A stretch of 64,000 nucleotides of DNA. It comes from Candidatus Hydrogenedens sp. (GTDB lineage Bacteria; Hydrogenedentota; Hydrogenedentia; Hydrogenedentales; JAEUWI01). Positions 11,183 through 26,873 of this stretch are shown here, one piece after another. The position numbers and the translations under genes were made by a program. The stretch covers positions 438,149 through 502,148 of the forward strand of contig WGMK01000010.1 of NCBI GenBank assembly GCA_016125095.1, in the 5' to 3' direction. Below the pieces are notes generated by a model. That model had not been told where the DNA came from, searched no databases, and worked only from the letters and a program-made list of their open reading frames with translations. Each line of letters begins with the position of its first letter. Positions within the stretch are counted from its first letter, which is position 1.

Positions 11183-13813
11183 CTAGCTGTACATCGGGTT
11201 GGGTTTGTTCACGGAAATCTTGAGGTGCTTGATGGCGCCCTTCACCACGTCCGCCGTGATGCTGCCGTCCTGCAGCAGGGCGTTGAGCGTGGCGAGCACG
11301 ATGAAGCGGGCGTCGACCTCGAAGTGGTTGCGCAGCGCCTCGCGCGATTCGCTCCGGCCGAAGCCGTCGGTGCCCAGGCTGTGGATGCCGCCGGGCACCC
11401 ACTTCGAGAGGCCATCGGGCAGAATCTTCATGTAGTCCGACGAGGCGACCACGGGGCCGGGCTCGGATTCGAGCATGCGGGTGACGAAGGGCACCTTCGG
11501 CTTCGAGCCGGGATGCAGCAGGTTCCAGCGCTCGGCGTCCAGCGCGTCGCGCCGGAGTTCGGTGTAGCTGGTCACGCTCCAGGCATCGGCCGCGACGCCG
11601 TATTCCTCGAGCATCTCCTGCGCCTTGAGCACCTCGTTCATGATGGCGCCGCTGCCCAGCAGTTGCGCGTGCAGCTTGGCGTTCTTCAGCTTCGACGGGC
11701 GGAACTTGTACAGGCCCTTGAGAATGCCCTCGCGCACGCGCTTGGAATCCTGCAGCGCAGGCATGGCGTAGTTCTCGTTCTCTACCGTCAGGTAGTAAAA
11801 AATGTCTTCCTGCTCGTGGTACATGCGGCGGATGCCGTCCTGCACCACGATGGCGAGTTCGTAGGCGAAGGCGACGTCGTAGCAGACGAGGTTGGGCACG
11901 CAGCTGCCGAACACGTGGCTGTGGCCGTCCTGGTGCTGAAGGCCTTCGCCGTTGAGCGTGGTGCGTCCGGCCGTGCCGCCGCAGAGGAAGCCCTTGCACC
12001 GGCTGTCGCCCGCGGCCCACACCAGATCGCCCACGCGTTGCATGCCGAACATGGAGTAGAACACGAAGAAGGGGATGGTATTTACGCCGTGGCTGGCGTA
12101 GGCCGTACCCGCGGCGATGAAGGACGACATTGAGCCGGCCTCGTTGATGCCTTCCTCGAGCAGCTGTCCGTCCTTCGCCTCGCGGTAATACATGAGGCTG
12201 TTCGAGTCGACCGGTTCATAGGTCTGGCCGAGGGACGAATAGATGCCGACCTGCTTGAACAGGCCGTCCATGCCAAAGGTGCGGGCCTCGTCGGGCACGA
12301 TGGGCACGATCAGCTTGCCGAATTCCTTGTCCTGCAGCAGCGTGCGGATGACCTGCACGAGCGCCATGGTCGTCGATACGGGGCGCTCGCTGCCGGCGTA
12401 GATGGACTTGAAGAGATCGTCCTTCGGGGCCTTCACCGGAGCGGCGTGCACCTTGCGGTCGGGCAGATAGCCGCCGAGCGCCTGGCGCCGCTCGTGCAGA
12501 TACTTCATGTTCGGCGCGTCGTCGTCGGGCTTGTAGAAGGGCGCGAACGCAATCTCGTCGTCGGATACGGGAATGCCGAAGCGGCCGCGGAATTCGCGCA
12601 GCTCTTCTTCGTTCAGCTTTTTCTGCTGATGGGTGATGTTCTTGCCTTCGCCGCTCTCGCCCAGGCCGTAGCCCTTCACCGTCTTTGCGAGGATCACCGT
12701 GGGCGCGCCCTTGGTATTAACCGCGCGGTCGTAAGCAGCATAGACCTTTTTCGGGTCGTGGCCGCCGCGCTTGATCTTCTTGATCTCGGTGTCGCTCAAC
12801 TGGTCGAGGAATTTCTTGATACGCGGGTCCACGGCAATCAGGCGCTTGCGGATGTACTCCGGCGTCTCCACCGTGAACTTCTGGAACTCGCCGTCGGGCA
12901 GGGACGCGAACACGCTCTCGAGCACGTTCTCGGAATCCTGTGCGAAGAGCTTGTCCCAGTCGCTGCCCCAGATGACTTTGATGACGTTCCAGCCCGCGCC
13001 GCGGAAGATGCCCTCGAGTTCCTGGATGATCTTGCTGTTACCGCGCACGGGACCATCCAGGCGCTGCAGGTTGCAGTTGATGACGAAGATAAGGTTGTCC
13101 AGCTTTTCGCGTGCGGCCATGCCGATGGCGCCGAGCGTCTCGGGCTCGTCGCATTCGCCGTCGCCCAGGTACGCCCACACGCGCCCGCCATTCGCCGGCT
13201 TCAGTCCACGATTCTCCAGGTACCGCATGAAGCGCGCCTGATAGATGGACATGATGGGACCAAGGCCCATGGATACCGTCGGGAATTGCCAGAAGTTCGG
13301 CATGAGCCACGGGTGCGGATACGAACTTAAGCCGCCGCCCTTGGCCAGTTCGCGGCGGAAGTTGTTCAGTTCCTGAATCGAGATGCGCCCTTCGAGGAAG
13401 GCGCGCGCGTAGATACCCGGCGCGGCGTGCCCCTGGAAATACACCAGGTCGCCGCCGTAGTCCTTGGTCTTGGCATGGAAGAAGTGATTGAAGCCCACCT
13501 CGTACAACGTTGCCGCCGAGGCGTAGGTGGAGATATGGCCGCCGATACCGTCCGATTCGCGGTTCGCCCGCACCACCATCGCCATCGCATTCCACCGGAT
13601 GAGGGACTTGTTCACGCGGCCCAGCTGCCCGTCGGTCGGGTATTCGGGCTCTTCCTCCACCGGGATCGTGTTCACATACGGCGTGTTCTGGCTGAAGTTG
13701 CCCCGGACTCCCCGCATGTAGGCATAGGTCTGCAATTCCTTCAGCAGCCGCTCCGCCGCGCCGCGGCCTTGCGCCTGCAATACGCCCTCGAGCGAATCGA
13801 GCCATTCGCTCAT
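11183..13813 (-). CDS. aceE: pyruvate dehydrogenase E1 component, homodimeric type
   Basis: ~876 aa, AceE-like throughout. Start chosen at MSEWLDSLEG, which resembles the E. coli AceE N-terminus; the ORF track allows 13900. Confidence 0.88.
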   Translation of the reverse strand: MSEWLDSLEGVLQAQGRGAAERLLKELQTYAYMRGVRGNFSQNTPYVNTIPVEEEPEYPTDGQLGRVNKSLIRWNAMAMVVRANRESDGIGGHISTYASAATLYEVGFNHFFHAKTKDYGGDLVYFQGHAAPGIYARAFLEGRISIQELNNFRRELAKGGGLSSYPHPWLMPNFWQFPTVSMGLGPIMSIYQARFMRYLENRGLKPANGGRVWAYLGDGECDEPETLGAIGMAAREKLDNLIFVINCNLQRLDGPVRGNSKIIQELEGIFRGAGWNVIKVIWGSDWDKLFAQDSENVLESVFASLPDGEFQKFTVETPEYIRKRLIAVDPRIKKFLDQLSDTEIKKIKRGGHDPKKVYAAYDRAVNTKGAPTVILAKTVKGYGLGESGEGKNITHQQKKLNEEELREFRGRFGIPVSDDEIAFAPFYKPDDDAPNMKYLHERRQALGGYLPDRKVHAAPVKAPKDDLFKSIYAGSERPVSTTMALVQVIRTLLQDKEFGKLIVPIVPDEARTFGMDGLFKQVGIYSSLGQTYEPVDSNSLMYYREAKDGQLLEEGINEAGSMSSFIAAGTAYASHGVNTIPFFVFYSMFGMQRVGDLVWAAGDSRCKGFLCGGTAGRTTLNGEGLQHQDGHSHVFGSCVPNLVCYDVAFAYELAIVVQDGIRRMYHEQEDIFYYLTVENENYAMPALQDSKRVREGILKGLYKFRPSKLKNAKLHAQLLGSGAIMNEVLKAQEMLEEYGVAADAWSVTSYTELRRDALDAERWNLLHPGSKPKVPFVTRMLESEPGPVVASSDYMKILPDGLSKWVPGGIHSLGTDGFGRSESREALRNHFEVDARFIVLATLNALLQDGSITADVVKGAIKHLKISVNKPNPMYS

Positions 13814-14230
13814 GCCATCGTCATAGGATTCTTCAGACTGGTAGTCCACACTCACGGAATCGTTCCTCGTACTGTTGCAGCGCGGGCGCCCCGGCCGCAT
13901 CAGGGGTCTTCACAGGCGCACCCTGCCAGTCTACCGAAACGAGAGCGGGGGTACACCTACTTATCGTTAGGTACGCCGCCCTCCGGGCTTCGCACCGTCC
14001 TTGCGGGGGAACACTTTACGTGGGGAAAGCATTTCTGCTGGGGGAACGAAGACTGCTGGCGACTCCCAGGCTTGAACAGGCGTACATCGACTGGGGCAAA
14101 CCCGACGTCGGCTCCGTCCTGCGGGCGTTGACTGGGGCTTGGCAAAGAGCCTAGTCTGGAATTTCGTAGTATAGTGGCACCTTGGGACAACCATGGGTGT
14201 GGTCAAGAAATCGTCTTGGGAGGACGTACC

Positions 14231-15532
14231 ATGCGAAGCTTCCGATGGTGCCACGTTTCAAAGTTGTTCGCGGTGCTCCTGCTCCCCTTGTGTTCCGGCT
14301 GTAAGGAAATGGCGCAGGTTTCCGTGCCGGTGACTTTCAATGATGCGGCGCTGGAGCATGCGGTCAAGGCCGCGCTTCGATTGCCCGACGACACCGTCCT
14401 TACGTCGGACCTAATGCTCGAACTTACTGATTTGGCCATCTGGGAATATGGGACCGACGTTTCCGACCTTACCGGCCTGGAGTATGCCTTTAATCTCGAC
14501 TGGCTCGACATTTCAGGGGGGCACATCCGGTCGCTGGCGCCAATTGAGCGCCTGCCGAGGCTACAGACCCTACGTCTGGGTGGGTGTCCGCTGGACGAAT
14601 CGGGTACGTTTTCGAATTGGCCTGCCTTGGAAGAACTGTGGCTGGTCGGTACGCGGGCGCAGCAGTTCAAGGTCATCGACATGCCCAAGCTGCGGACGGT
14701 TTGGAACAAGAATCGATCCGGGCCGGGCACGGACGAGACGATCTCGGTAGAAGTAATCGGATGCCCCGTTTTGGAAGAGGTCATGATGGAGGACTACGGC
14801 GCTACCGCACTTATCGTTGAGGACTGCGCATCGCTCCGAAAGTTGGATATCGGAGGCCTGCCCCTAATCGGTGTAAGGCTATCCAATCTGCCTGCCCTAA
14901 AGTCGCTGTCTCTGACTGAAGGTGCCTTGTCGTACATCGACCTCAGCGGTCTGACATCCCTGACTGGTCTCAACCTGCGGGGAAACCAGCTGATGGCAAT
15001 CGACTTGGAGCCTGTGCCGCTTCTGAAGTTCTTGATTTTGTCAGGTAATAACTTCTCGGAGATCGACCTTTCCCCGGTGCCGGATCTCAAGAACCTTCAG
15101 CTGGGGGGCAATCCGCTCAATGCGATCAATCTCGAGGGGAATCCCCTCTTGAGTGAGCTCTATTTGCAAGACACGACGCTAACTTCGCTGGATCTCACGC
15201 ATCAGGCATACCTGACCAGGCTCGATCTGACTTCCAGCCCCGTTGGAGAGGTCAATCTGGACTCGAATCCGGAACTGCAATATCTGTTTCTGGATGACAC
15301 GGAAATTTCCACACTAAATCACGCCGCGGGATTGGAACACGTCATCGCGCTACTCGCGAGGCGGAATCAAATCGAATACCTAACGCCGCTTTTCGCGTGG
15401 CCGAATCTGGCGGATGCGTACATCGACGTAACGCAGAATCCCCTGTCGCTGGAGTCGCTCTGCGAAGAGATTCCCGAGATGCGTGCACTCGGCACCAGAG
15501 TGATAGTATCTGGGCAGGAATGGTGCCGATAG
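14231..15532 (+). CDS. leucine-rich repeat protein with N-terminal signal/lipoprotein-like peptide
   Basis: Signal region FAVLLLPLCSGC followed by many LxxLxLxxN-type repeats (LTGLNLRGNQL, LKFLILSGNNFSEIDLS, LKNLQLGGNPL). Confidence 0.72.
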   Translation: MRSFRWCHVSKLFAVLLLPLCSGCKEMAQVSVPVTFNDAALEHAVKAALRLPDDTVLTSDLMLELTDLAIWEYGTDVSDLTGLEYAFNLDWLDISGGHIRSLAPIERLPRLQTLRLGGCPLDESGTFSNWPALEELWLVGTRAQQFKVIDMPKLRTVWNKNRSGPGTDETISVEVIGCPVLEEVMMEDYGATALIVEDCASLRKLDIGGLPLIGVRLSNLPALKSLSLTEGALSYIDLSGLTSLTGLNLRGNQLMAIDLEPVPLLKFLILSGNNFSEIDLSPVPDLKNLQLGGNPLNAINLEGNPLLSELYLQDTTLTSLDLTHQAYLTRLDLTSSPVGEVNLDSNPELQYLFLDDTEISTLNHAAGLEHVIALLARRNQIEYLTPLFAWPNLADAYIDVTQNPLSLESLCEEIPEMRALGTRVIVSGQEWCR

Positions 15533-15779
15533 CAGGCGTAGCGGCCGACTGCATCCAACGCGTGGGGGTGAGTTGAGAGGCGCCGGCCGCCTTGCCACGC
15601 CAGAAGCCTTAGTTCCCTTACCGTCCGACACTTAATGAAGTGCAAGGGCGCGCCCGCCGGTCGACCACGAAGATCGCTTTCCGCGGAGCTAATTGGGGCT
15701 TGCGCATTCCGGCAATCTGTGTTACCCTCGACCTTTGTTGTTCTTAACTAGTCGGGCAATAAGGATGGAGGACGGCGTG

Positions 15780-16802
15780 ATGAAGCGAGAGATTGGGCTG
15801 TGTGTGCTGGCGCTGGCTCTGGTGGCCGGGACGGCGCATGCGGGTACGACGACGATCGATTTTACGCAGGGACTGGGCAACCTGGTGCAACTGGGGGGCT
15901 CAGGCAGTTTGTCGGTGGATTCGAATTGCGATGCGGTGTTCACCGGCACGCCGACGTATCTGATCGGCAACGGCAGTTCGGGGGTTATCACGAGCGGGAC
16001 GGTATCGATCACGATGAACATCGTACCGGCGACCGATGTGGGGGTGTCGGACGAGCCGGGGCTGACCCTAATCGACGACAACGACGGCTCCTTTGTGACC
16101 GCAACGGTGGACAGCACGGGGCTGGTGACGCTGACGAACGGCTCGACGACGGACACGATGCAGTTCGGCGCGCCGGCCGCGGCGGGCACGTCGATGACGC
16201 TGACCTACAACCCCAACACCGACACGACGACGCTGACGCAGAGCGGGTCGTTTTCGGATAACGCGACGATTCCCAACAGCTTCCCGCTGCAGATCGACAC
16301 GCCGGCCGTGAAGGTGGGCGTGGTCTCGTTTGGCGGCGGCAAGTTCGAATCGCTTTCGGCCACCGGCACGGGCATTCCGAACCTGGACAGCACGGGCGTG
16401 TGCGGCGGCAGCGAGGGCGAGGGCGAAGGGGGCGGCGGCACCGAGGGCGAGGTGGACCCGATCGTGACCATCTCCGGCGGGGGCTATATCGTCGCGGGCG
16501 AGGACGATCTGGTCCTGAGCCTGAACGGCGCTGACGGCGCGGTCGGCTATCAGTGGCGCAAGAACGGCGCGGATCTCTCCGGCGAGACGGGCGCGACGCT
16601 GGTCCGTGCGCCGGTGCTGGAGGCCGACGAGGGCAACTACCGCTGCGCCGTCGATTTCGGCGCGAAGCAGGTCGTGCTGTCCAACATCGTAACCGTGACC
16701 GTGTTTGGTCCGAACGAATTGCCCGCGATGGGCGGCAGTGGCCTTGTCCTGTTGGGTGCCGCACTGGCCGGCGCGATGCTCGCGCGTTCGCGCAAGCGCT
16801 AA
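15780..16802 (+). CDS. secreted Ig-like domain protein with PEP-CTERM-like C-terminal sorting signal
   Basis: Signal peptide MKREIGLCVLALALVAGTAHA. A GGSEGEGEGGGG linker, an Ig-like segment (GNYRCAVDFGAKQVVLSNIVTVTV) and the C-terminus ELPAMGGSGLVLLGAALAGAMLARSRKR (PEP-like motif, TM helix, basic tail). Confidence 0.55.
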   Translation: MKREIGLCVLALALVAGTAHAGTTTIDFTQGLGNLVQLGGSGSLSVDSNCDAVFTGTPTYLIGNGSSGVITSGTVSITMNIVPATDVGVSDEPGLTLIDDNDGSFVTATVDSTGLVTLTNGSTTDTMQFGAPAAAGTSMTLTYNPNTDTTTLTQSGSFSDNATIPNSFPLQIDTPAVKVGVVSFGGGKFESLSATGTGIPNLDSTGVCGGSEGEGEGGGGTEGEVDPIVTISGGGYIVAGEDDLVLSLNGADGAVGYQWRKNGADLSGETGATLVRAPVLEADEGNYRCAVDFGAKQVVLSNIVTVTVFGPNELPAMGGSGLVLLGAALAGAMLARSRKR

Positions 16803-16822
16803 GTAGTTCCGAAAGTGTGTAT

Positions 16823-16858
16823 CGGCGGCGGCTCCCAACGGGCCGCCGCCGTTTTTTT
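16823..16858 (+). terminator. rho-independent terminator
   Basis: cggcggcggc-tcccaac-gggccgccgccg followed by ttttttt. Confidence 0.65.
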
Positions 16859-16990
16859 GGAATGCGGGTGTTCCGCCGGATGTTTCATCTACGCAAAGTG
16901 CATGTTTACTTGCGGTTAAGTCGCTTCGCCTTGATTGGGTCTGGGGGCCGTGTTAAGGTGTGGCGATTGCAGTACGGCAGGAGCGTTTGA

Positions 16991-18100
16991 ATGGCCCGCG
17001 CAAAGAAGAAAGACCGCATCTTTACCGACCGGGAGCGCAAGCTGTTCCGGAAGCGTATCCCCTCGACCGAATCGATTTTCGGCGCGGGGTTCCTCGCGTT
17101 TGTTATCGGCATGGGCAGTTGGTTCTTCGCGCAGAAGAACAACTTCGACCCTTCCGAGCGCGACATATCGAATGAATTGATGGTCGCGGATTCCGTGGAA
17201 GACAAACTCTTCCGCATGCCCTTGGAGCGTTGGACCGAGCCGGGCCAGGGCGGGGTGGTTTCTGCGGCCGCCGATACCGGCTATTTCCCCGAGGCGATTC
17301 TCGAGCACGGCTGGCAGCCCTCCACCCGTCCGCAAGAATTCGTCGCCGACAACCTCTACGAGAAAATCAACGGCGCGGCGCCCCAGTACATCGACTTCGG
17401 CTTTCAGAAGCTCTACTACATCGGGCTGGTGCAGCCCGCCACGAATGCCGAAATCAGCATTGAGATGTACGACATGGGCGAGTTTCAGAATGCGCTCGGC
17501 ATCTTTGCGGCCCAGCGCGACGCCAGCCGCGACGTCATCAACCGCGGACACGCCTATTTCTACGAGACCTCGCTCGGCGCGATCGGCATCGCCGGAACCT
17601 ATTATTTCAAGATTGCCGGTGCCGAGCCCGGGCCCGAGATTGAGAAGAAGACGCAGTACCTGATTGACGCACTTTGCGGGCTAAAGCAGGCTCAGATTGG
17701 AACGCCGACCGCGTTCCAGGCTTTCGCCGGTACGATGGGCATTCCATTCCAGAACATCCAATACCAGCGCACGGATGTATTCCAGTACGATTTCGCCAAG
17801 GATTTCTGGTTTGCCGCGCCTGCCGACGGCGACGGCATGCGGTACTACGTACACGAGACGCCCGACGAATCTGCGGCGGGTGACCTATATAACAAGCTTC
17901 TCGAGAATCACTTAATGGACTACGAACAGACGGCGGAGCGGGAAGGCGGGGTGGTACTGAAGCATAAGTACCTCGACGAGTACTTGGTGCTGGAGAAGCG
18001 CGGTTCGATGATTTATGGACTCGATGGCGCCCCGTCGATCGATTCGGTCGATGGCAGCCTGTCGAAACTGGAAACGGTGATCTTCCATGAAGAAAGCTAA
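16991..18100 (+). CDS. membrane-anchored hypothetical protein (N-terminal TM, large extracytoplasmic domain)
   Basis: 369 aa; a basic N-terminus then the TM helix FGAGFLAFVIGMGSWFF. It overlaps the downstream DUF362 gene by 14 nt. Confidence 0.5.
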   Translation: MARAKKKDRIFTDRERKLFRKRIPSTESIFGAGFLAFVIGMGSWFFAQKNNFDPSERDISNELMVADSVEDKLFRMPLERWTEPGQGGVVSAAADTGYFPEAILEHGWQPSTRPQEFVADNLYEKINGAAPQYIDFGFQKLYYIGLVQPATNAEISIEMYDMGEFQNALGIFAAQRDASRDVINRGHAYFYETSLGAIGIAGTYYFKIAGAEPGPEIEKKTQYLIDALCGLKQAQIGTPTAFQAFAGTMGIPFQNIQYQRTDVFQYDFAKDFWFAAPADGDGMRYYVHETPDESAAGDLYNKLLENHLMDYEQTAEREGGVVLKHKYLDEYLVLEKRGSMIYGLDGAPSIDSVDGSLSKLETVIFHEES

Positions 18101-19142
18101 AGACGGCATCCAGCATCCCGATTACGAAAAGGCGCCGATGAGCCGACGCGCGCTGCTGGGCAAGATTGCCGCGACGGGCGGCATCGCCGGTGCTGCGGGC
18201 TACGCGGCCTGGGCGCCCGAGGGCGCGCCTGGTTCGCTCCGGGACACCTCCGGCCTGCGCAGCGTGCCCAAGGTGACGCCGCTTCGACTGCCCGACTTCC
18301 GCGTAGAGAAGCCGGCGGGTGCGGCCGACGTCGGCATCGGACGCCACAGTGATCCGCTGCAGAACGACGCATCGATGTTGCGCGCGGCGCTGGACGCCAT
18401 CGGTGGCCTGCAGCACTATGTGAAGCGAGGCGACATCGTGATGGTGAAGCCCAACGTGGCCTTCGACCGTGCCCCGGCGCTGGGCGCCACTTCAAATCCG
18501 CGGTTGCTGAAAGAACTCATCCACATGCTGATTGTCGATTGCGGCGCGCAGGAAGTGCGCGTGGCCGACAATCCCATCGAGTCGCCGCCCGACTGCTTCG
18601 CCAAAAGCCGCATCGGCGAGGCGAGCCAGACGGCGGGCGGCCGCGTGTATCTGCCGGATTCCAACGCCTTCAAGATGCTGCACACGCCGGGGGCCAAGCT
18701 CATCGAGAACTGGTGGTTTTTCCACCGCCCCTTCACCAATGTGGACAAGGTGATCGGGCTGGCGCCCATCAAGGATCACAACCTGTGCAGCGCCTCGATG
18801 GGCATGAAGAACTGGTACGGGCTGCTGGGCGGCACGCGCAACCAGTTCCATCAAGACATCCACGGCATCGTGTCCGATCTCTCAGTGATGATGCGGCCGA
18901 CGCTGACGATTCTCGATGGCACCCATGTGCTCATGCAAAACGGTCCCACCGGCGGCGACCCTTCGAACGTGAAGATGGGCGATGCGGTGATTGCGGCGGT
19001 CGATCCGGTCGCTTGCGACGCCTGGGCCTTCGAGTATCTGCTCGAGCGCGGCCGCGATTACCCGAGCTATCTCTACATGGCCGAAGAGAAGGGCAGCGGG
19101 AAAGTGGATTGGGCGGGTCGCGTGAAGGAAATTCAGGCCTAG
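18087..19142 (+). CDS. Tat-exported DUF362 domain protein
   Basis: Twin-arginine motif [25 protein letters not shown]. The DUF362-like core ([45 protein letters not shown]) is present. Confidence 0.72.
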
Positions 19143-19188
19143 GCGGCACGGGCGAAGCAGTCAACGAACGCAGGAACATCGGAGCCGA

Positions 19189-20838
19189 ATGATTCAGAAG
19201 CTACAGCGAACCATCGCGGAATTGTCGTGGAAGAAGGTTCTCCGCCTCACGAACGTCCGCATTGTGTCCCAAGCGTTTTTCTTCGCGGTGTTCCTCTTCA
19301 GCGTATGGGCCACCTGGACCACCCGCCTCGGCGGCTATCCGGTGTCGCGCATCCTCGAGATGGACCCGCTCGTGATGGTCGCGAACATTCTTTCGACCGG
19401 GCACGTCTACCGCTATCTCGGCTGGGGGCTGGTGATAATCGTCGTCACGCTGCTGTTCGGCCGCGTCTTCTGTAACTGGATATGCCCCTACGGCACGCTG
19501 CACCAGTTCATCGGCTGGTTGTTCAATGTGCGCAACGGCAAGGAACGCATCGACAGCAACCGTTACGCCGACTTCTATTTCGTGAAGTACGCGATCCTTA
19601 CCGTGTTTCTGATCATGGCATTCATGGGCTCGCTTCAAATCGGCCTGCTCGACCCCATCTGCCTGATGTACCGCACCTTTGCCACGGTGGTCGCGCCCAT
19701 GTCCGACATGGGGATTGACCAGCTGTCGAACGGGCTGCGGCTGTTGAATGCCGATACACATTTCCTCGACAACCTCAAGTTCGGTCCGGGCGTGGAAGAG
19801 CGCTTCTTCGTTGGCTCGTTCTGGATTGGCGTGATGATCGTGTTCCTCGTGGGCATGAATATCGTCATTCCGCGGTTCTTCTGCCGGGTGCTCTGTCCGC
19901 TCGGCGCCTTCCTCGGCACGCTGTCGCGCTTCGCGGTCTTCCGTATTAACCGCGACGTGCACAAGTGCACGGACTGCAACCTGTGCCTCACGCGTTGCGA
20001 AGGCGCGGCGGACCCGCAGGGCGCGGTGCGGCAGTCCGAATGCTTCTCGTGCATGAACTGCATCGACGACTGCCCGGAAGACGCGCTGTCTTTCACGATG
20101 ACCGGGCTCGATACCAAGCAGGTGGTGGCCTCGCCGGATCTCGGCCGCCGCCGCTTCTTCTTCGCCTCGCTCGCCGGCGTGATGGCGGTGCCCTTCGTAA
20201 AGACCCACGGTGTGAACGTCGACCACCATTTCTCGCCCGAGCTTATCCGTCCGCCGGGTTCGGTGGAAGAAGCCGAGTTCCTGAAAAAATGCATCAAGTG
20301 CGACCAGTGCATCAATTCCTGCCCCACCAATGTGCTTCAGCCGGCATCCACCCACCAAGGCGGTATAGAGGCTTTGTGGACCCCCGTGATGGATTTCCGC
20401 ATGGGACACTGCCAGCTCAAGTGCACCATGTGTTCCGAAGTCTGCCCGACCGGCGCGATCCGCAAAATCACGGTGGAGGAGAAGATGGGCAAGGGCGACT
20501 ATCTCGAAGAGGGGCCCGTGCGTTTGGGTACCGCGTTCTTCGACAAGGGCCGTTGTCTGCCGCACGCCATGGAGATTCCCTGCGTAGTGTGCGAGGAAGT
20601 GTGCCCGGTTTCGCCCAAGGCTATCCAGACCAAGGATGTCGAGGCGAAGGACGTTTATGGCAATATCGTCGTGCTGAACAAGCCCTTCATGGTGCCCGAT
20701 TTGTGCATTGGCTGCGGCATCTGCGAGCATGAGTGCCCGGTGAAGGATGATCGCGCCGTCTATGTGACGGCCGTGGGTGAGAGCCGTTCGAAGGAGCGCA
20801 GACTGCTCTTGCGGCAGCGCGAACTGAAAGACGCCTGA
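19189..20838 (+). CDS. NapH/MauN-like membrane polyferredoxin with multiple 4Fe-4S motifs
   Basis: 549 aa; TM-embedded FCNWICPYG and FCRVLCPLG motifs are characteristic of NapH. At least four CxxCxxCxxxCP ferredoxin motifs follow, and an internal Tat-like motif [11 protein letters not shown] is present. Confidence 0.8.
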
Positions 20839-20868
20839 GGGGCGCCAACGACCTGAGGAGGGTCAACC

Positions 20869-22089
20869 ATGAAGCACAAGGATCTGGCGAGACGCGACTT
20901 CATGAAGGGGGCCGTGCTGGGAGGCGCGGGGCTGGGCATGGCGGGCGGCGCTTCGGCACTGCATGCGCCGATGCAACTGGCCGAGGGGGACGCTGCGGCC
21001 GCCACGACGGTGCCGCGCAAAAAGCTGGGCAGCACCGGCGAGGAGATTCCGATTCTGCTGATGGGCGGATCGCAGACTTTTGACCCCAAGTACGACAAGA
21101 TGCTGCACCGCGCCTACCGCATGGGCGTCAACTACATCGACACGGCGCAGGTATACGCGGGCGGTCAGTCGCACAAGACCATCGCGCCGTTCCTGCAGCA
21201 GGTAGGCCGCAAGAACCTTTGGATTACGTCCAAGGTGAAACTGGCCGGCAGCAAGGCGACCCCCGACAATTTCAAGAGCTATCTGCAGACGGCCTGCTTG
21301 GACCAGTTGGAAACGGACTATCTCGACATGTACTTCATGCACATGATCGACGATCTGGCCCTGCTTGAGCCCGAATTCATCAAGATGGGCGACGACCTCA
21401 AGAAAGAGGGCAAGATCAAGTACTTCGGCTTTTCCTGCCACGATGGCCTGGTGGCCGAGCTGATCGACAAGGCCGCGGACGTGGGCGGTATCGACGCCAT
21501 CATGTTCCGCTACAACTTCCGCCAGTACGGCGAGAAGAAGCTGAACGACGCGATGGACAAGGCCAAGAAGGCAGGCATCGGCCTGATTGCCATGAAGACC
21601 CAGGCCTCGGTGCCGGACGACCTGGAGAAGGTGGCGGAGTTCCAATCGAAGAACTTCACGTTGCCGCAGGCGAAGCTGAAATCCGTGTGGGCCGACGAGC
21701 GTATCGACGCCGCCGTATCGCAGATCAACAACCTGCAGATTCTGGAAGAGAATGCCGGCGCCGCCATGTCGCCCGCTCAGCTCAGCATGAACGAGTATCA
21801 CCAGCTGAATAAGCTGGCCCGCATGACACGTTCGCACCACTGCCTCGGTTGCAACCAGATCTGCGAGTCGCGCGTGGCGGGACAGCTCAAGATTTCCGAC
21901 GCGCTGCGCTACCTCATGTACCACGAGAGCTACGGCGACGCCGAGACGGCCCGCCTGTTGTACAACGCGCTTTCGGATGGCGAGCGCGACTTCGATTCGG
22001 TGGACCTGACCGAGGCAATCAAGGCCTGTCCGCAGGACATCCAGATCGGCGAGCGTCTGGCGAAGGCCCGTCAGGTACTCAGCGCCTAA
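20869..22089 (+). CDS. Tat-exported aldo/keto reductase family oxidoreductase with C-terminal Cys cluster
   Basis: Twin-arginine signal ARRDFMKGAVLGGAGLGMAGGASALHA. The AKR core (GVNYIDTAQVYAGGQSHK) is present, and the C-terminus carries C-x2-C-x3-C...C-P (HHCLGCNQIC...KACP). Confidence 0.78.
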   Translation: MKHKDLARRDFMKGAVLGGAGLGMAGGASALHAPMQLAEGDAAAATTVPRKKLGSTGEEIPILLMGGSQTFDPKYDKMLHRAYRMGVNYIDTAQVYAGGQSHKTIAPFLQQVGRKNLWITSKVKLAGSKATPDNFKSYLQTACLDQLETDYLDMYFMHMIDDLALLEPEFIKMGDDLKKEGKIKYFGFSCHDGLVAELIDKAADVGGIDAIMFRYNFRQYGEKKLNDAMDKAKKAGIGLIAMKTQASVPDDLEKVAEFQSKNFTLPQAKLKSVWADERIDAAVSQINNLQILEENAGAAMSPAQLSMNEYHQLNKLARMTRSHHCLGCNQICESRVAGQLKISDALRYLMYHESYGDAETARLLYNALSDGERDFDSVDLTEAIKACPQDIQIGERLAKARQVLSA

Positions 22090-22109
22090 TCACTGCAATC
22101 GTTACCGAG

Positions 22110-22147
22110 GCGGCGGGATTCTTCGGAATTCCGCCGCTTCTGCTTTT
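22110..22147 (+). terminator. putative bidirectional terminator between convergent genes
   Basis: 12-bp stem gcggcgggattc / gaattccgccgc around a ttcg loop, followed by ttctgctttt. Confidence 0.45.
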
Positions 22148-24842
22148 ACCGGGGCGCCGCCATGAGCAGGGCCGCGAGGGCGCGCAGCAAGACGCCCCGG
22201 TCCACCGGCTTCGACAGCAGTTCCGTTCCCGGCTGGGCAAGGAGTTCGTCGGTTACCTGATCGGCGGAGTACCCCGTAAGGAACATGACCGGAATACCCG
22301 GGCGCACTTCCCGTATGCGGGCGAGGGCCTCGGTGCCATTGAGGCGTGGCATCACGACATCGAACAACAGAAAATCGAAGCTGTCGGGTGCAGCCTCGAA
22401 CAGCTCTACCGCCTCGAGTCCGTCCGTGGCGACCGTAACGTCGTAACCGGCTACCGCGAGAATCTGCGTCATGGCCTCGCGTACCAGTTTCTCGTCCTCC
22501 GCGAAGAGTAAGCGGGCAGCGCCGGAGATGGCGACCGCCTCGGCCGGGTGCCGCTCTGCGACCGGGTCCGTTGCGGCCGCGATGGGCAGGCGCACAAGGA
22601 AAGTCGAGCCTTTTCCTGGTTCGCTTTCCACCTGGATGCTGCCGCCATACTGCGTCACGATTCCGTAGACCGTCGAGAGCCCCAGCCCCGTGCCTTCATT
22701 GAGTGGCTTCGTAGTGAAGAAGGGCTCGAAGATATGCGGCAGTACGTCGGGTGGGATGCCTGCCCCGGTGTCGCGGATGCAAATGGCGACATGCGTCGGC
22801 CGGGCGCCCTCGGACAGCGCAATCGTCGGGTCTGCGGGCCCCTCCTGCTCTTGGAGCGAGACATCCAGCACGCCGCCCTGCGGCATGGCATCGCGGGCAT
22901 TGAGCGCCAGGTTCAGCAATACCTGCTGCAGCTGGGTTTCGTCGCAGCGTACGCGCGGCAGGTGTGGCATGGCCTGTAGACGCAGGTCGATACGTTCGCC
23001 CAGCAAGGGGCCGATAAGCTCGGCAGTCCCCTCGGCCACCTCAAGGGCATCGACCGAATGAACGGCGGCCGGCTCATTCCGGCTGAAGGCGAGCAGCTGA
23101 TTGACGATACCTGCTGCGCGCTGGGCGGCCGTGTTGATTCTCAGGAAATAGCCAGCGGGAGTCGCCGGCACATCGCCGCGGCTCATGCCCATCTCAGAAT
23201 ATCCGAGAATTCCCTGCAGCACATTGTTGAAGTCGTGCGCGATGCCGCCCGCGAGCTGCCCGATGGCCTCCAGCTTCTGGGCCTGCAGCAGGTGCTGCTC
23301 ATTGCGGCGCACCGCAGCCTCGGCTTCCTTGCGCGCGGTGATATCGAAGATGACACCCTCAATGAGACGATCGTCTCCCGACTCCAGCACGATGCCCTTG
23401 TCGGCCACCCAGCGAAAGCCGCCGTCGCGGTGGTTGGCGCGGTATTCGAGCGCATAAGCGCGGCGGTTGGCCGCGGCCGTCTCGACCGCAGCGCGCACCA
23501 TGGCCAGGTCTTCCGGGTATACCATCTCCTGCCAGAAATCTATCGCCGGCTCCAGGATTTCATCGGCCGATTTACCCGTGATGCGTTCGAACCAGGGACT
23601 GAGGTAGGTGGCCTGTACCGATTCGCCCAGCGTGCCGCGATAGACCGCGCCGGGTATATTGCGCACGAGTGCGCGGTAGCGCTCCTGGGCCTCTTCGCGC
23701 GCGGCCTCGGCCTTGTGCCGCTCGGTGATATCTCTGAAACTGCCCCAGACGCGGATGATCTGGCGCCCGGCGATGATGCCTTGCGCGCTGTTCTCGAACA
23801 CGCGCGGGCTGCCATCGGTTCCCTCGCCCGAGGTGGGGGCATCCTGCAGCTGGTATCCGCCGACCACGAATTGCCGGCAGATTTCATGGAGCGTGCGGTG
23901 GGTGGGCCGGCCCGTGATGTCGGCAAACCGCACGCCCAGCGCGTCCTCGCGGCGCTTGAATCCGTATTGACGCGCGCATACGTCGTTGCATTCCACCAGC
24001 ACGCCGTTCATCAAGCCCTGAATCTGCTCTTCCTGCGGCAGCTTGGTTGATATGGGCGGGTCGAACTCGTAGCACCAGATGGCATCCGAGGTGCTTTCGA
24101 TCAGGGACTTGTAGCGTTGTTCCCGATCGCGCAGCGCCGCCTCGATGGTCTGGCGCTCGGCAAATTCCTGCTCGCGGCGCATCAGCAATTCGGCATTGCC
24201 CTCGGCCACCTGAATCAGGCGGCGCGTCACTTGACGGCGGCTTTCGAGACCGGCCAGTGCCAGGAAAGCCAGCGCGAATACATAGGTGAGCCAGGCGAGC
24301 GGATCGAGCGACAAGTTCTGCTCGATATACAAAATGGGAATGAGGTCGGTGGCGAGGTAGAGATAGGCGTAGATGGCGTAGGTAACGAGCATGGCACAGA
24401 GCACGGCGAACCCGACGGGATAGCCGACCAGGCCGCCCGCGAAAAACACCGAGCAGAGGAACAGCGGCGGATTCATGCTGCCGAGGCCGTAGAAGTGCAA
24501 CTCGACCACGCCGATGCCGAACATGACCGCGAGGAGGGTGATGGCGCGCACCTGGTAGGGAATCCGCGGATAGAGGTTGGCCGCCAAGACGGAGAAGTAG
24601 CCGATCAGGTATAACGCGGCGCGCAGGTATTCCTCATTGCCGAACCGCCGCGAGACGGTAACATAGACCGCGAAGCCGCCCACGACCGCGAAGATGAGCA
24701 GCATGGCGCGCAGGCTGCGCTCCTGCAACTCCGCCAGCAACTTGCGGGCATCCTGCGGATAATCCGTCGCGCTCATCTTGATGTACTCGCGGAATTGCCC
24801 ACGGTTATGCTCTCCTCCGTCTCCCCGGCTAAACCTTAGCAC
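22146..24842 (-). CDS. hybrid sensor histidine kinase (multi-TM N-terminus, PAS domains, HisKA, HATPase, C-terminal receiver)
   Basis: 898 aa; H-box HDFNNVL, N/G boxes (NLALNARDAM, RDTGAGI, GTGLGLS) and a receiver domain (LLFAEDE...DVVMP). Confidence 0.85.
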   Translation of the reverse strand: MLRFSRGDGGEHNRGQFREYIKMSATDYPQDARKLLAELQERSLRAMLLIFAVVGGFAVYVTVSRRFGNEEYLRAALYLIGYFSVLAANLYPRIPYQVRAITLLAVMFGIGVVELHFYGLGSMNPPLFLCSVFFAGGLVGYPVGFAVLCAMLVTYAIYAYLYLATDLIPILYIEQNLSLDPLAWLTYVFALAFLALAGLESRRQVTRRLIQVAEGNAELLMRREQEFAERQTIEAALRDREQRYKSLIESTSDAIWCYEFDPPISTKLPQEEQIQGLMNGVLVECNDVCARQYGFKRREDALGVRFADITGRPTHRTLHEICRQFVVGGYQLQDAPTSGEGTDGSPRVFENSAQGIIAGRQIIRVWGSFRDITERHKAEAAREEAQERYRALVRNIPGAVYRGTLGESVQATYLSPWFERITGKSADEILEPAIDFWQEMVYPEDLAMVRAAVETAAANRRAYALEYRANHRDGGFRWVADKGIVLESGDDRLIEGVIFDITARKEAEAAVRRNEQHLLQAQKLEAIGQLAGGIAHDFNNVLQGILGYSEMGMSRGDVPATPAGYFLRINTAAQRAAGIVNQLLAFSRNEPAAVHSVDALEVAEGTAELIGPLLGERIDLRLQAMPHLPRVRCDETQLQQVLLNLALNARDAMPQGGVLDVSLQEQEGPADPTIALSEGARPTHVAICIRDTGAGIPPDVLPHIFEPFFTTKPLNEGTGLGLSTVYGIVTQYGGSIQVESEPGKGSTFLVRLPIAAATDPVAERHPAEAVAISGAARLLFAEDEKLVREAMTQILAVAGYDVTVATDGLEAVELFEAAPDSFDFLLFDVVMPRLNGTEALARIREVRPGIPVMFLTGYSADQVTDELLAQPGTELLSKPVDRGVLLRALAALLMAAPR

Positions 24843-24932: not shown

Positions 24933-26873
24933 TTACGACTCAGTCGAAGCCTGCTGCAATTCGCGGTCTTCGCTGTTCGCAAGCGAGGGCGTTTTCTGCG
25001 CCCAGTCGCGATACTTGGGGGGAAGGTCGCCGAACACGTCGGAGGCCATCCAGTTGTACTTGCCTTCCATCATCGCCTTCGCCACCTTGTTGTAGTCCGA
25101 ATTGTGGTTGTGCTTGACCTTGCGGAAGTGGTCTTCGATGCGCTCGCGGGCGCCCTTGCACCACAGGTCGGCCAGTTCCACCGGCGTCTTGTCCTTCGGG
25201 TTCTTGTCGAGCAGCTGCTCGGCCTTCGCCAGGCAGCAGCCCATCACGAACAGGTCCACGCCGATTTCCACAAAGTGGCTCAGGAGGATCTGTTCGAACT
25301 CGAGCTTCGGACCGAACTTGGCCATGGTGTGGAAGAGCGAGCGGGCCAGACGCTTGCTGGTGCGCGCCGCATAGGCCAGGTGTTCCTGGCAGGCGCCGTC
25401 GAGGTGCTTCACGTTGAAGTCGGTGCTCGAGGGCATGTACAGCGACGGGTACCAGGTGGAGTAGAACTTGAAGGCGTTCCAGATGAGCGAAAGCTTGCTC
25501 TCCTTCTGGCCCGGCTTCGGCATCATCAGCGGCATCACCAGCTTGAAGTGCGTGTCCATGGCTTCGCGCGCCATGATCAGGTGCATCACTTCGCTGGAGC
25601 CCTCGAAGATGCGGCCCACGCGGCCGTCGCGTGCGAAACGATTCACCGGCATCGGGCGCTCGCCGCGGTTGTAGAGCGAGGTGTCGGTTTCGAAGCCGCG
25701 GCCGCCGCGCACCTGGATCAGTTCATCCAGCACACGGTGCGAAGTCTCGGTGCAGAAATACTTGGCCGCGGCGGCTTCCAGGCGGATATCGGCATTCGCG
25801 CGGTCGGCGAAGCTGCACGCCAGGTAAACAAGCGCGTCCATCGCGAAGATGTCGGCCACCATGCCGGCGATCTTCTTGGAGATGGACTGGTGACGGCCGA
25901 TCGGCACGCCCCACTGCACGCGCGAGGTGACCCAGTCCTGGATGGGCTCGATGAGGCCGGCCAGGGTGCCGGTGCTGGCCGCGGGAATGCCCAGGCGGCC
26001 GGCGTTCAGCGTGGTGAGCGCGATCTTGAGACCCATGCCCGGCTTGCCGATCATGTTCTCGGCGGGCACCTTCACGTTCGTGAACTTGATCAGGCCGTTG
26101 CTCAGGCCGTGCAGGCCCATGAAGTTGCAGCGGTGCAGCAGCTCGACGCCTTCGCTCTCGGTTTCTACCACGAAGGTCGAGATCTGCTTGATTTCCTTGC
26201 CGTTCTTCTGCAGCGGCGGGGTCTGCGCCATCACCACCATCAGCTTCGAATCGGGGCCGTTGGTGCACCACAGCTTCGTGCCGTTGATGAGGTAGTGGCT
26301 GCCGTCTTCCGTCGGCGTCGCCGAGGTGGACATCTTGGCCGGGTCCGAACCCACATCCGGCTCGGTCAGTGCGAAGGCGCTGATTTCGCCCGCGGCCAGG
26401 CGCGGCAGGAACTTCTGCTTCTGTTCCTTGGTACCGAACAGCTTGAGCGGCTGCGGCACGCCGATCGACTGGTGCGCCGATACATACGTAACCGTGGTCT
26501 GGCAGTAGCTGCCCATGAAACGCAGCAGGCGGGCGTAGTTCCACTGGGTCAGGCCCAGGCCGCCGTATTCCTTGCTGATCTTCATGCCGAAGAGGCCGAT
26601 CTTCGCCAAGCCGTCGAGCGTGGCCTGCGGGAACACGCCCGTCTCGTCCAGGAGGATCGGGTCGTGCTGTTCCATCACCTCGCGCGTCTTCTCAATCAGC
26701 TCATCGCCGATGCGCTTGTCTTCCGGATCCTGCTCGGGATACGGGTGCAGCAGGTCCCAGCGGAAGTTTCCGCGGAACATTTCGGCGGTGAAACTCGGGA
26801 ACTTCCATTCCGTTTCACGCGCAGACTCGGCCATTTCCATGGCGGCATCTTTGGCGGCATTGTTTTCAGCCAT
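24933..26873 (-). CDS. acyl-CoA dehydrogenase, long FadE-like form
   Basis: 646 aa; ACAD N-terminal, middle and C-terminal domain signatures (FGMKISKEYGG, TEPDVGSD, YLINGTKLWCTNG, IFEGSSEV). Confidence 0.85.
   Translation of the reverse strand: MAENNAAKDAAMEMAESARETEWKFPSFTAEMFRGNFRWDLLHPYPEQDPEDKRIGDELIEKTREVMEQHDPILLDETGVFPQATLDGLAKIGLFGMKISKEYGGLGLTQWNYARLLRFMGSYCQTTVTYVSAHQSIGVPQPLKLFGTKEQKQKFLPRLAAGEISAFALTEPDVGSDPAKMSTSATPTEDGSHYLINGTKLWCTNGPDSKLMVVMAQTPPLQKNGKEIKQISTFVVETESEGVELLHRCNFMGLHGLSNGLIKFTNVKVPAENMIGKPGMGLKIALTTLNAGRLGIPAASTGTLAGLIEPIQDWVTSRVQWGVPIGRHQSISKKIAGMVADIFAMDALVYLACSFADRANADIRLEAAAAKYFCTETSHRVLDELIQVRGGRGFETDTSLYNRGERPMPVNRFARDGRVGRIFEGSSEVMHLIMAREAMDTHFKLVMPLMMPKPGQKESKLSLIWNAFKFYSTWYPSLYMPSSTDFNVKHLDGACQEHLAYAARTSKRLARSLFHTMAKFGPKLEFEQILLSHFVEIGVDLFVMGCCLAKAEQLLDKNPKDKTPVELADLWCKGARERIEDHFRKVKHNHNSDYNKVAKAMMEGKYNWMASDVFGDLPPKYRDWAQKTPSLANSEDRELQQASTES

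Follow-up and report, generated by a model that had tools for sequence, protein, structure and literature searches.

We describe here a set of four genes found in a 64,000-nucleotide stretch of DNA (hereafter the window, 62.8% G+C) from Candidatus Hydrogenedens sp. (assembly GCA_016125095.1, contig WGMK01000010.1, positions 438,149 to 502,148). In order, they encode a DUF6599 protein, a DUF362 protein with a signal for twin-arginine translocation (Tat), a polytopic polyferredoxin in which NapH-like and NapG-like halves are fused, and an aldo/keto reductase (AKR) with a Tat signal and an additional C-terminal domain holding four invariant cysteines. We consider the chances somewhat better than even that the four genes form one operon, as their spacing, conserved gaps and flanking hairpins suggest, and that they encode a membrane-bound, periplasm-facing, quinone-linked oxidoreductase complex, in which electrons would pass from quinol to a substrate. 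The module spans at least seven bacterial phyla.

A first-pass annotation made from the letters of the window had read these genes as a putative extracytoplasmic electron-transfer operon. The conserved unit, the NapH-type iron-sulfur (Fe-S) module and the two partners with Tat signals all stand; the DUF6599 identity of gene 1, the cysteine domain of the AKR and its rebuilt cofactor pocket had been overlooked. The annotation knew of no characterised system with this composition, and our literature search, which left most subscription journals outside its coverage, found none. The known part is the NapGH-type backbone, already published in a fused form that uses both the Sec and Tat pathways. 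The new part is the terminal pair made of an AKR and a DUF362 protein, which is unprecedented.

Layout and conservation of the gene set

All four genes lie on the + strand: gene 1 (DUF6599, 369 aa) at 16991-18100, gene 2 (DUF362, 351 aa) at 18087-19142, gene 3 (polyferredoxin, 549 aa) at 19189-20838 and gene 4 (AKR, 406 aa) at 20869-22089. The product of gene 4 is identical in sequence to that of locus tag GC168_07555. The tight packing first noticed is borne out by the list of open reading frames (ORFs), which gives an overlap of 14 nt followed by gaps of 46 and 30 nt, and across orthologous loci the median gaps are -4, 14.5 and 33 nt (88-98 loci). The start of gene 2 is backed by conservation among homologues from position 9 on, and the starts of genes 3 and 4 are preceded by GGAG and GAGGAGG, respectively.

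On the 5' side, the terminator proposed by the first-pass annotation is convincing. The hairpin at 16823-16851 (+ strand) has a 12-bp stem with 11 G-C pairs followed by a run of seven U (-27 kcal/mol, z -3.1), and represents the intrinsic terminator of the upstream gene and the 5' boundary of the operon. On the 3' side, a terminator-like hairpin with a 15-bp stem (22107-22140, + strand; -29.2 kcal/mol, z -4.1) separates the AKR gene from a convergent histidine-kinase gene and is followed on the + strand by CUGCUUUU. It is strong on this strand, but its description as bidirectional holds only in part, because the - strand has no U-tract. A scan for sigma-70 promoters over positions 15000-24000 gave no site, and is uninformative for the host phylum.

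Recurrence of the neighbourhood in other genomes had been put forward as a check on the operon, and it was found from both ends. With the AKR as seed, 80 loci were collected from reference genomes, 49 of which had at least 4.5 kb of upstream DNA and could be used for counting partners. In 43 of these 49 loci, DUF6599, DUF362 and polyferredoxin genes precede the AKR gene in the order seen in the window, all on one strand. One of the remaining six has a weaker DUF6599 match, and the other five are orphan AKR paralogues. With DUF362 as seed, metagenome contigs were searched for relatives down to 43% identity: the polyferredoxin and AKR genes lie downstream of DUF362 in 40/43 loci, and DUF6599 lies upstream in 43/48. 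At least two of the three exceptions to the downstream arrangement have a permuted order, AKR-DUF6599-DUF362-polyferredoxin, and belong to a divergent clade (about 44% identity in DUF362). This order is suggested by two loci taken together, one showing AKR-DUF6599-DUF362 (L156, 148-3941) and the other DUF6599-DUF362-polyferredoxin with no AKR downstream (L159, 411-4405). Of 160 loci fetched independently, most show the gene order of the window, which is far beyond chance.

The hosts of the module are labelled Hydrogenedentota, Planctomycetota, Acidobacteriota, SAR324, Gemmatimonadota, Gammaproteobacteria and Rhodothermaeota. Closed genomes are among the carriers (OY782877.1 and CP070706.1, for instance), and such hosts are known from anammox reactors, groundwater and marine samples. 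Mean pairwise identity is highest for the DUF362 protein (60.5%), followed by the AKR (49.9%), and the DUF6599 protein is the least conserved of the four (33.9%). Flanking genes were clustered for the 80 reference-genome loci in search of a hint at a substrate or a regulator: none occurs in more than 11 of the 80, the commonest being a tandem second AKR, and no sugar transporter or glycosidase is conserved beside the module.

The four proteins

Gene 3 would provide the electron-transfer backbone. Its N-terminal half matches the NCBIfam NapH profile (92 bits), and residues 317-526 match positions 8-205 of the NapG profile (89 bits), so that the alignment begins at profile position 8, in the region of NapG's own signal. 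Two Fer4_5 matches are found with Pfam. The predicted architecture comprises five transmembrane domains (TMDs), two CX3CP motifs and six [4Fe-4S] motifs, two of them cytoplasmic and four periplasmic. The first CX3CP (CNWICP, C95/C99; 19471-19488, + strand, as for all features of this gene) lies at the end of TMD2 and the second (CRVLCP, C232/C236; 19882-19899) after TMD4. They are followed by the two putative cytoplasmic [4Fe-4S] motifs (C260/263/266/270 and C285/288/291/295-P; 19966-20076), and the other four (C368-378, C408-419, C456-472 and C506-516) are carried by the NapG-like domain (20248-20769). All 28 motif cysteines, both CX3CP pairs included, are 100% conserved in 51 orthologues, and 24 of them fall into six groups of the CxxCxxCxxxC(P) type. 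The strings FCNWICPYG and FCRVLCPLG, on which the first-pass annotation had based a NapH-type membrane protein, are thus both present. It had also recognised the Fe-S richness of the protein, where its count of at least four motifs becomes six. Its label 'NapH-like' suits one half of the protein and is incomplete, the NapG half and the internal twin-arginine motif having escaped notice.

This internal motif (GRRRFFF, aa 319-325) directly precedes a weakly hydrophobic TMD5, itself followed by a lysine (20143-20214). An S/G-R-R-x-Φ-Φ-F motif is conserved between the NapH and NapG halves across loci. The mean Kyte-Doolittle hydrophobicity of TMD5 is 1.33 (1.07 on average in orthologues), compared to 1.53-2.20 for TMD1-4, and a lysine or arginine follows TMD5 in 54 of 69 orthologues. 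Fusion to NapG with an internal Tat motif would account for how the clusters reach the periplasm. A fused NapH-NapG polyferredoxin of this kind has been shown with reporter fusions to use Sec for its first TMDs and Tat for the last one, and the same authors likened such fused Sec/Tat redox proteins to MsrPQ (Tooke et al. 2017, eLife, PMC5449189). With its RR before a weak TMD5, a positive charge after it and a C-terminal cofactor domain, the predicted product of gene 3 fits this class. Calling it 'NapH' or 'NapG' was rejected, both scores being far below the equivalog cut-offs and nap genes being absent; no nitrate-reductase gene was found in the neighbourhood within the window or among the conserved flanks. 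As far as sequence tells, gene 3 is a homologue of NapGH, and not NapGH proper.

The product of gene 4 matches the Aldo_ket_red family (PF00248) with 85.9 bits, for a cut-off of 24, and its barrel (aa 50-312) was aligned by profile to the structures 6kik and 5dan (E about 4e-20). Sugar dehydrogenases and 2,5-diketogluconate reductases are among the nearest AKRs of known structure. The catalytic tetrad of AKRs, D91/Y96/K122/H158, is 100% conserved in 109 orthologues. The N-terminus carries the twin-arginine motif RRDFMKG (aa 8-14; 20890-20910, + strand), in which R8 is conserved at 100% and R9 at 99%; the RR pair is also kept in relatives that are merely 31-38% identical over the C-terminal cysteine domain.

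In AKRs, particular residues are known to contact NAD(P)H. These canonical residues, mapped through the 6kik alignment and followed in the 109 orthologues, are for the most part replaced. The Ser-Asn pair becomes S189-C190-H191, where C190 is Cys in 88% of the sequences and otherwise Thr, Ala or Ser, and H191 is invariant. The carboxamide-binding Gln is Met or Leu (94%), the Tyr-Ser-Pro stretch is M242-K243-T244, and the position of the Lys in IPKS is variable (His, Glu, Gln or Gly). Only Ser189 and the E294/N295 pair are kept. This pattern points to a remodelled NAD(P)H pocket.

The barrel is followed by a domain of about 90 residues (aa 313-406; 21805-22086, + strand) of the CX2CX3C...CP type, in which C325-x2-C328-x3-C332...C387-P388 is invariant in the 109 orthologues. 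When 1.84 billion cluster representatives were searched exhaustively, just 203 proved to have this domain. The full-length matches are without exception AKRs of 390-457 aa that carry it C-terminally, and each of the eight distant full-length matches that were inspected individually has an N-terminal twin-arginine signal. The domain has no relative in Pfam or the Protein Data Bank (PDB), a Pfam scan at E-values up to 10 returning a spurious TPR match. The ferredoxin-like domain of cytoplasmic COG1453-type AKRs was considered as a possible relative and rejected: no link was found, the domain occurring, among the representatives searched, solely in AKRs of about 400 aa with a Tat signal. We infer that the four cysteines bind a single Fe-S cluster, most likely [4Fe-4S], and that the domain is the docking point for the polyferredoxin. 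Such a domain would explain both the export of the AKR by Tat and its ability to accept electrons. The literature search found no description of an exported AKR or of an Fe-S AKR.

Other observations concern relatives of this AKR. Two distant ones, P0505 and P0426, have a lipobox-like cysteine right after the hydrophobic h-region of their Tat signal (ALIGCSK and GASCATG), and may be Tat-exported lipoproteins. A second, tandem Tat-AKR paralogue with the four-Cys domain is present in 11 of the 80 reference-genome loci (L011, L013, L017, L044, L047, L054, L061 and others), and orphan paralogues lie far from any module in five (L022, L032, L039, L048 and L066). Neighbours of the orphans include GH127, a xylose-isomerase-like TIM barrel, a pyrroloquinoline quinone (PQQ) glucose/sorbosone dehydrogenase and DUF1559; they do not recur, and constitute weak hints at carbohydrates. 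Tandem and orphan AKRs suggest that a single electron-transfer module may work with several AKR 'heads'. In addition, some Hydrogenedentota-like loci have, directly downstream of the module and on the - strand, a divergent AKR-like gene with a Tat motif and without the Cys motif (L003, 8735-9895; L004, 9309-10406; L006, 9222-10319; L009, 9638-10723). In the last three of these loci it is followed by a weak second DUF6599-like ORF.

Gene 2 encodes a protein matching nearly the whole of the DUF362 profile (PF04015; 129.8 bits, cut-off 24, profile positions 1-199 of 200). Its twin-arginine motif, SRRALLGK (aa 19-26; 18141-18164, + strand), is followed by a mildly hydrophobic h-region, which is the pattern of Tat substrates. 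The two strong twin-arginine signals announced for the DUF362 protein and the AKR are therefore real motifs, with an RR pair at least 99% conserved in 117 and 109 orthologues, respectively. The region of the DUF362 protein ahead of the RR pair is unusually conserved (PIQHPEYxKAPM). The h-region ends in A-x-A-P, with the proline at +1, and then comes a conserved WPLSLRD. Such an end is unusual for a cleaved signal peptide and suggests an uncleaved signal anchor, by which the protein would probably be held at the membrane; alternatively, the conserved N-terminus is possibly a chaperone-binding site.

In its structural model, the DUF362 protein has the fold of LarA, the nickel-pincer racemase. 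This likeness is informative at the level of fold comparison alone, since neither the single sequence nor a profile gave a match in the PDB, LarA included. Residues C170, H231, C234, H255, H259, K229 and K241 are conserved at 96% or more in the 117 orthologues, and K229, H231, K241, H255 and H259 are candidates for the Lys-tether, His-ligand and catalytic-His roles of LarA-type enzymes. Two Gly-rich motifs, one of which is NGPTGGDPS, are near-invariant and lie in low-confidence loops of the model, as would be expected of loops that depend on a cofactor or a partner. A classical four-Cys Fe-S site was ruled out, as just two cysteines, C170 and C234, are conserved. From the literature, DUF362 belongs to the same Pfam clan as the LarA N-terminal domain (PMC11770544) and is often found with Fe-S domains; extracellular DUF362 domains fused to CBM9 and dockerin have been reported in lignocellulose enrichments (PMC5742341). 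No functional work on DUF362 was found by the literature search. On these sequence features, the protein is a probable catalytic or cofactor-bearing periplasmic subunit.

Gene 1 matches DUF6599 (PF20244) with 82.1 bits, the cut-off being 27. Its product has a basic cytoplasmic N-terminal tail, a single transmembrane helix (aa 29-47) and a globular part, which is placed in the periplasm by the positive-inside rule. This part is modelled with a PsbP/Mog1/DcrB-like fold, non-enzymatic and accessory-like, and has no conserved Cys or His. A sequence search of the PDB gave no match, and no paper naming DUF6599 turned up in the literature search. The protein is probably a membrane-anchored accessory, a scaffold or a ligand- or substrate-binding subunit.

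Could these four genes merely be adjacent? The AKR would then be an ordinary NAD(P)H enzyme, as its retained tetrad and E-N motif might suggest, the RR motifs would be fortuitous, the Cys motif would be structural (binding Zn or forming disulfides), and there would be no complex. Against this, the order is kept in the two seed sets and in at least seven phyla, linkage survives permutation of the order, the RR pairs are invariant in both sets of orthologues, the NAD(P)H-contact residues are systematically swapped for other conserved residues, and the Cys domain is confined to the Tat-signal AKR family. We regard this explanation as largely refuted and very improbable.

A proposed electron path and its alternatives

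In the complex that we favour, Sec would insert the first four helices of the gene 3 product with their two CX3CP motifs, and the first two [4Fe-4S] clusters would stay in the cytoplasm. Tat would then export the folded, four-cluster NapG-like domain via the internal RR motif and TMD5, in a Sec-to-Tat hand-over. In this way, a wire of Fe-S clusters would start from a quinol/quinone site of the NapH type, where it is anchored. The AKR and the DUF362 protein would also leave by Tat, presumably because they carry cofactors, and would dock on this wire folded and cofactor-loaded. Rather than using free NAD(P)H, the AKR would exchange electrons with the NapG domain through its own four-Cys domain; coupling to the Fe-S chain is suggested because the periplasm is without NAD(P)H and the nicotinamide pocket is rebuilt. 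The DUF362 protein would be a second catalytic or cofactor-bearing subunit, and DUF6599 a scaffold or substrate-binding accessory. By analogy with all characterised NapGH-type modules, electrons would most likely flow from quinol to NapH, to NapG and then to the AKR and/or DUF362, where they would reduce a small carbonyl-type compound of the periplasm, which might originate from sugars or reactive aldehydes.

What we observe directly is the structure of the genes, their motifs and folds, their conservation and their linkage. From this we infer that clusters are bound and that the proteins are exported and assemble into a complex, as well as its direction and substrate; the quinol-to-substrate direction is proposed purely by analogy. 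In view of its higher mean identity (see above), its LarA fold and its conserved Cys, His and Lys residues, the DUF362 protein has at least as strong a claim to a catalytic role as the AKR, and the latter, taken as the terminal enzyme by the first-pass annotation, may not be the sole one. As for the substrate, weak hints at sugar-type carbonyl chemistry come from the DUF362-CBM9 and DUF362-dockerin fusions, the neighbours of the orphan AKRs and the nearest solved AKRs.

Several points weigh against the proposed complex. Quinol (about -70 to +100 mV) is a poor donor for the reduction of simple aldehydes or ketones (about -200 mV). Hydride transfer is the chemistry of an AKR site, and Fe-S clusters pass electrons one at a time; no flavin or other converter between two-electron and one-electron steps is evident. 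Gene 3 scores far under the NCBIfam equivalog cut-offs, with 92 versus 234 bits for NapH and 89 versus 269 bits for NapG. The AlphaFold2 model of the DUF362 protein is of moderate confidence (pLDDT 75.6), and its likeness to LarA is at fold level. The four proteins diverge in step from one pair of loci to the next (rho 0.85-0.88), which is largely expected from shared phylogeny. Finally, every locus stems from metagenome-assembled genomes (MAGs) or metagenomes.

The unfavourable thermodynamics of quinol suggest that a higher-potential substrate or the reverse direction may apply. In the latter case, the same complex would be a periplasmic dehydrogenase, in which the AKR and/or DUF362 would oxidise a sugar, an alcohol, an aldehyde or a hydroxy acid and deliver electrons to the quinone pool by way of the AKR cluster and those of NapG and NapH. 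In function it would resemble the membrane-bound periplasmic dehydrogenases with which acetic acid bacteria oxidise sugars and alcohols, with Fe-S replacing PQQ, flavin adenine dinucleotide (FAD) and haem. Redox potentials favour the oxidation of aldoses, aldehydes or hydroxy acids with a quinone acceptor. Four-cluster ferredoxin subunits of this superfamily run both ways, as in formate dehydrogenase-N and DMSO reductase, and the host phyla are largely polysaccharide-degrading heterotrophs. The sugar dehydrogenases and 2,5-diketogluconate reductases among the closest solved AKRs, the carbohydrate-related neighbours of the orphan AKRs and the extracellular DUF362 fusions from lignocellulose enrichments (PMC5742341) all fit this direction too. 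However, all characterised NapH-family modules (NapGH, NosGH, the Sulfurospirillum quinol dehydrogenase, NosR and CcoG) are known to send electrons outward, the carbohydrate hints come from neighbours that do not recur, and the conserved surroundings of the module include neither a sugar transporter nor a glycosidase. We hold electron flow from the substrate to quinone to be possible but doubtful.

The mismatch between hydride and single electrons might give the LarA-like DUF362 protein its importance, since LarA enzymes use a nickel-pincer nucleotide. Speculatively, the AKR would be driven by electrons from Fe-S clusters, and DUF362 would hold a captive pincer or nucleotide cofactor, perhaps with a metal held by Cys and His, which interconverts electrons and hydride. 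This more specific proposal seems to us rather unlikely. If true, it would define a new class of respiratory or periplasmic oxidoreductase, give a first function to DUF362 and DUF6599, and reveal an unrecognised route to hydride-type chemistry on carbonyls and hydroxyls outside the cytoplasm without free NAD(P)H.

The module might otherwise serve maintenance, maturation or repair, quinol electrons keeping a component of the envelope reduced or detoxifying reactive carbonyls. Systems of this sort are MsrPQ (repair of methionine sulfoxide), MauM/MauN (maturation of methylamine dehydrogenase), NosR (activation of NosZ), CcoG (Cu reduction) and PaoABC (periplasmic aldehyde detoxification). A self-contained module with no conserved catabolic or transport neighbours, present in hosts of varied lifestyles and phyla, has the pattern of a housekeeping function of the envelope; AKRs are classical detoxifiers of reactive aldehydes, relatives of NapH commonly act in maturation or activation, and the parallel with MsrPQ drawn by Tooke et al. 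(PMC5449189) goes the same way. Yet tandem and orphan AKR paralogues suggest diversification of substrates, which is more typical of catabolic enzymes, the highly conserved DUF362 protein and the six-cluster polyferredoxin represent a large investment, and no target enzyme is co-localised. A role in repair is, in our opinion, quite unlikely.

Whatever the direction, the four genes form a self-contained module without assigned function that is widespread in abundant, poorly cultured phyla, and also found in some Gammaproteobacteria. They give DUF362 and DUF6599 a concrete genomic and structural context, and provide a fixed set of partners for the NapH-NapG polyferredoxins of the dual Sec/Tat type, which were first described without a settled physiological role. 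An exported AKR with a rebuilt pocket and a Cys-cluster domain raises the question of whether Fe-S electrons can drive an AKR site. If the complex is indeed a quinone-linked periplasmic reductase or dehydrogenase, it would add a new type of terminal enzyme to bacterial redox chains and change the annotation of the MAGs that carry it.

Flanking genes and comparison with known systems

Upstream of the operon, the window holds a complete pyruvate/2-oxoacid dehydrogenase set on the - strand (E3, 8344-9765; E2, 9821-11140; E1, 11183-13900). A leucine-rich repeat protein (14174-15532) then precedes a secreted protein of 369 aa without Pfam match (15693-16802, + strand), the C-terminus of which, NELPAMGGSGLVLLGAALAGAMLARSRKR, resembles a PEP-CTERM-type sorting tail. 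Downstream, the convergent gene that shares the hairpin region 22107-22140 encodes a hybrid sensor kinase of MASE11-PAS-PAS-HisKA-HATPase-receiver architecture (22146-24842, - strand). This kinase is not conserved beside the module elsewhere, and is probably not its dedicated regulator. It adjoins the gene for a long acyl-CoA dehydrogenase of the ACAD9/ACADV type (646 aa; 24933-26873, - strand), unrelated to the module.

Among known proteins, members of the AKR superfamily such as 2,5-diketo-D-gluconate reductases, L-galactose dehydrogenase and Kv-beta have in common with gene 4 the (alpha/beta)8 barrel and the Asp-Tyr-Lys-His tetrad. The product of gene 4 differs from them by its Tat signal, by the replacement of the contacts to the nicotinamide and the 2'-phosphate, and by the additional C-terminal domain, some 90 aa long, in which four Cys are invariant.

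The LarA superfamily (nickel-pincer-nucleotide racemases and epimerases; Pfam DUF2088) belongs to the same clan as DUF362, and the Lys, His and Gly-rich loops of the DUF362 protein would be compatible with a nucleotide-type cofactor. Identity to LarA is only about 10%, with no match at the sequence level, and the DUF362 protein of the module is shorter, lacks the C-terminal domain of LarA, has a Tat signal and is predicted to be periplasmic. LarA reactions are redox-neutral, whereas this DUF362 protein is genetically coupled to an electron-transfer chain.

The logic of a Tat-exported, cofactor-loaded enzyme that works without free NAD(P)H is also that of MsrPQ, PaoABC and glucose-fructose oxidoreductase. 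MsrPQ is fed from the quinone pool, glucose-fructose oxidoreductase carries a captive cofactor, and carbonyl, aldehyde or sugar chemistry takes place in the periplasm. These enzymes are from unrelated families and have other cofactors (respectively molybdenum cofactor and haem b; molybdenum cofactor, FAD and 2Fe-2S; tightly bound NADP), and none of them comes with an AKR, a DUF362 protein or a NapGH-type polyferredoxin.

Closer to gene 3 are NapGH of E. coli and Wolinella succinogenes and the NapGH-like module next to pceA in Sulfurospirillum multivorans. They share with it a NapH-type membrane module of four helices, which has a pair of CX3CP motifs and, on the cytoplasmic side, two [4Fe-4S] motifs, as well as the NapG-type periplasmic four-cluster ferredoxin with a twin-arginine signal. 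NapGH serves a Tat-exported periplasmic enzyme, and the same logic is proposed here. In Sulfurospirillum, the NapGH-like module has been proposed to feed PceA, a Tat enzyme other than Nap (PMC4585668), and the comparison with NapGH-type quinol dehydrogenases is also drawn from PMC5928378. Here NapH and NapG are fused in one polypeptide, and napA, napB, napC and pceA are all absent from the vicinity. The partners of gene 3 would be an AKR and a DUF362 protein, in contrast to a molybdo-, haem- or corrinoid enzyme.

The dual Sec/Tat polyferredoxin of MLMS-1 (Q1NSB0) resembles gene 3 at the level of architecture, with five TMDs, an RR pair directly before a TMD5 of low hydrophobicity, a positive charge after it, four extracytoplasmic [4Fe-4S] clusters, and a description by its authors as a NapH-NapG fusion. 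It has three predicted cytoplasmic clusters and seven in all, compared to two and six for gene 3. It was published without a function or partner enzymes, whereas gene 3 is accompanied by a fixed set of partners, the DUF6599 protein, the DUF362 protein and the AKR.

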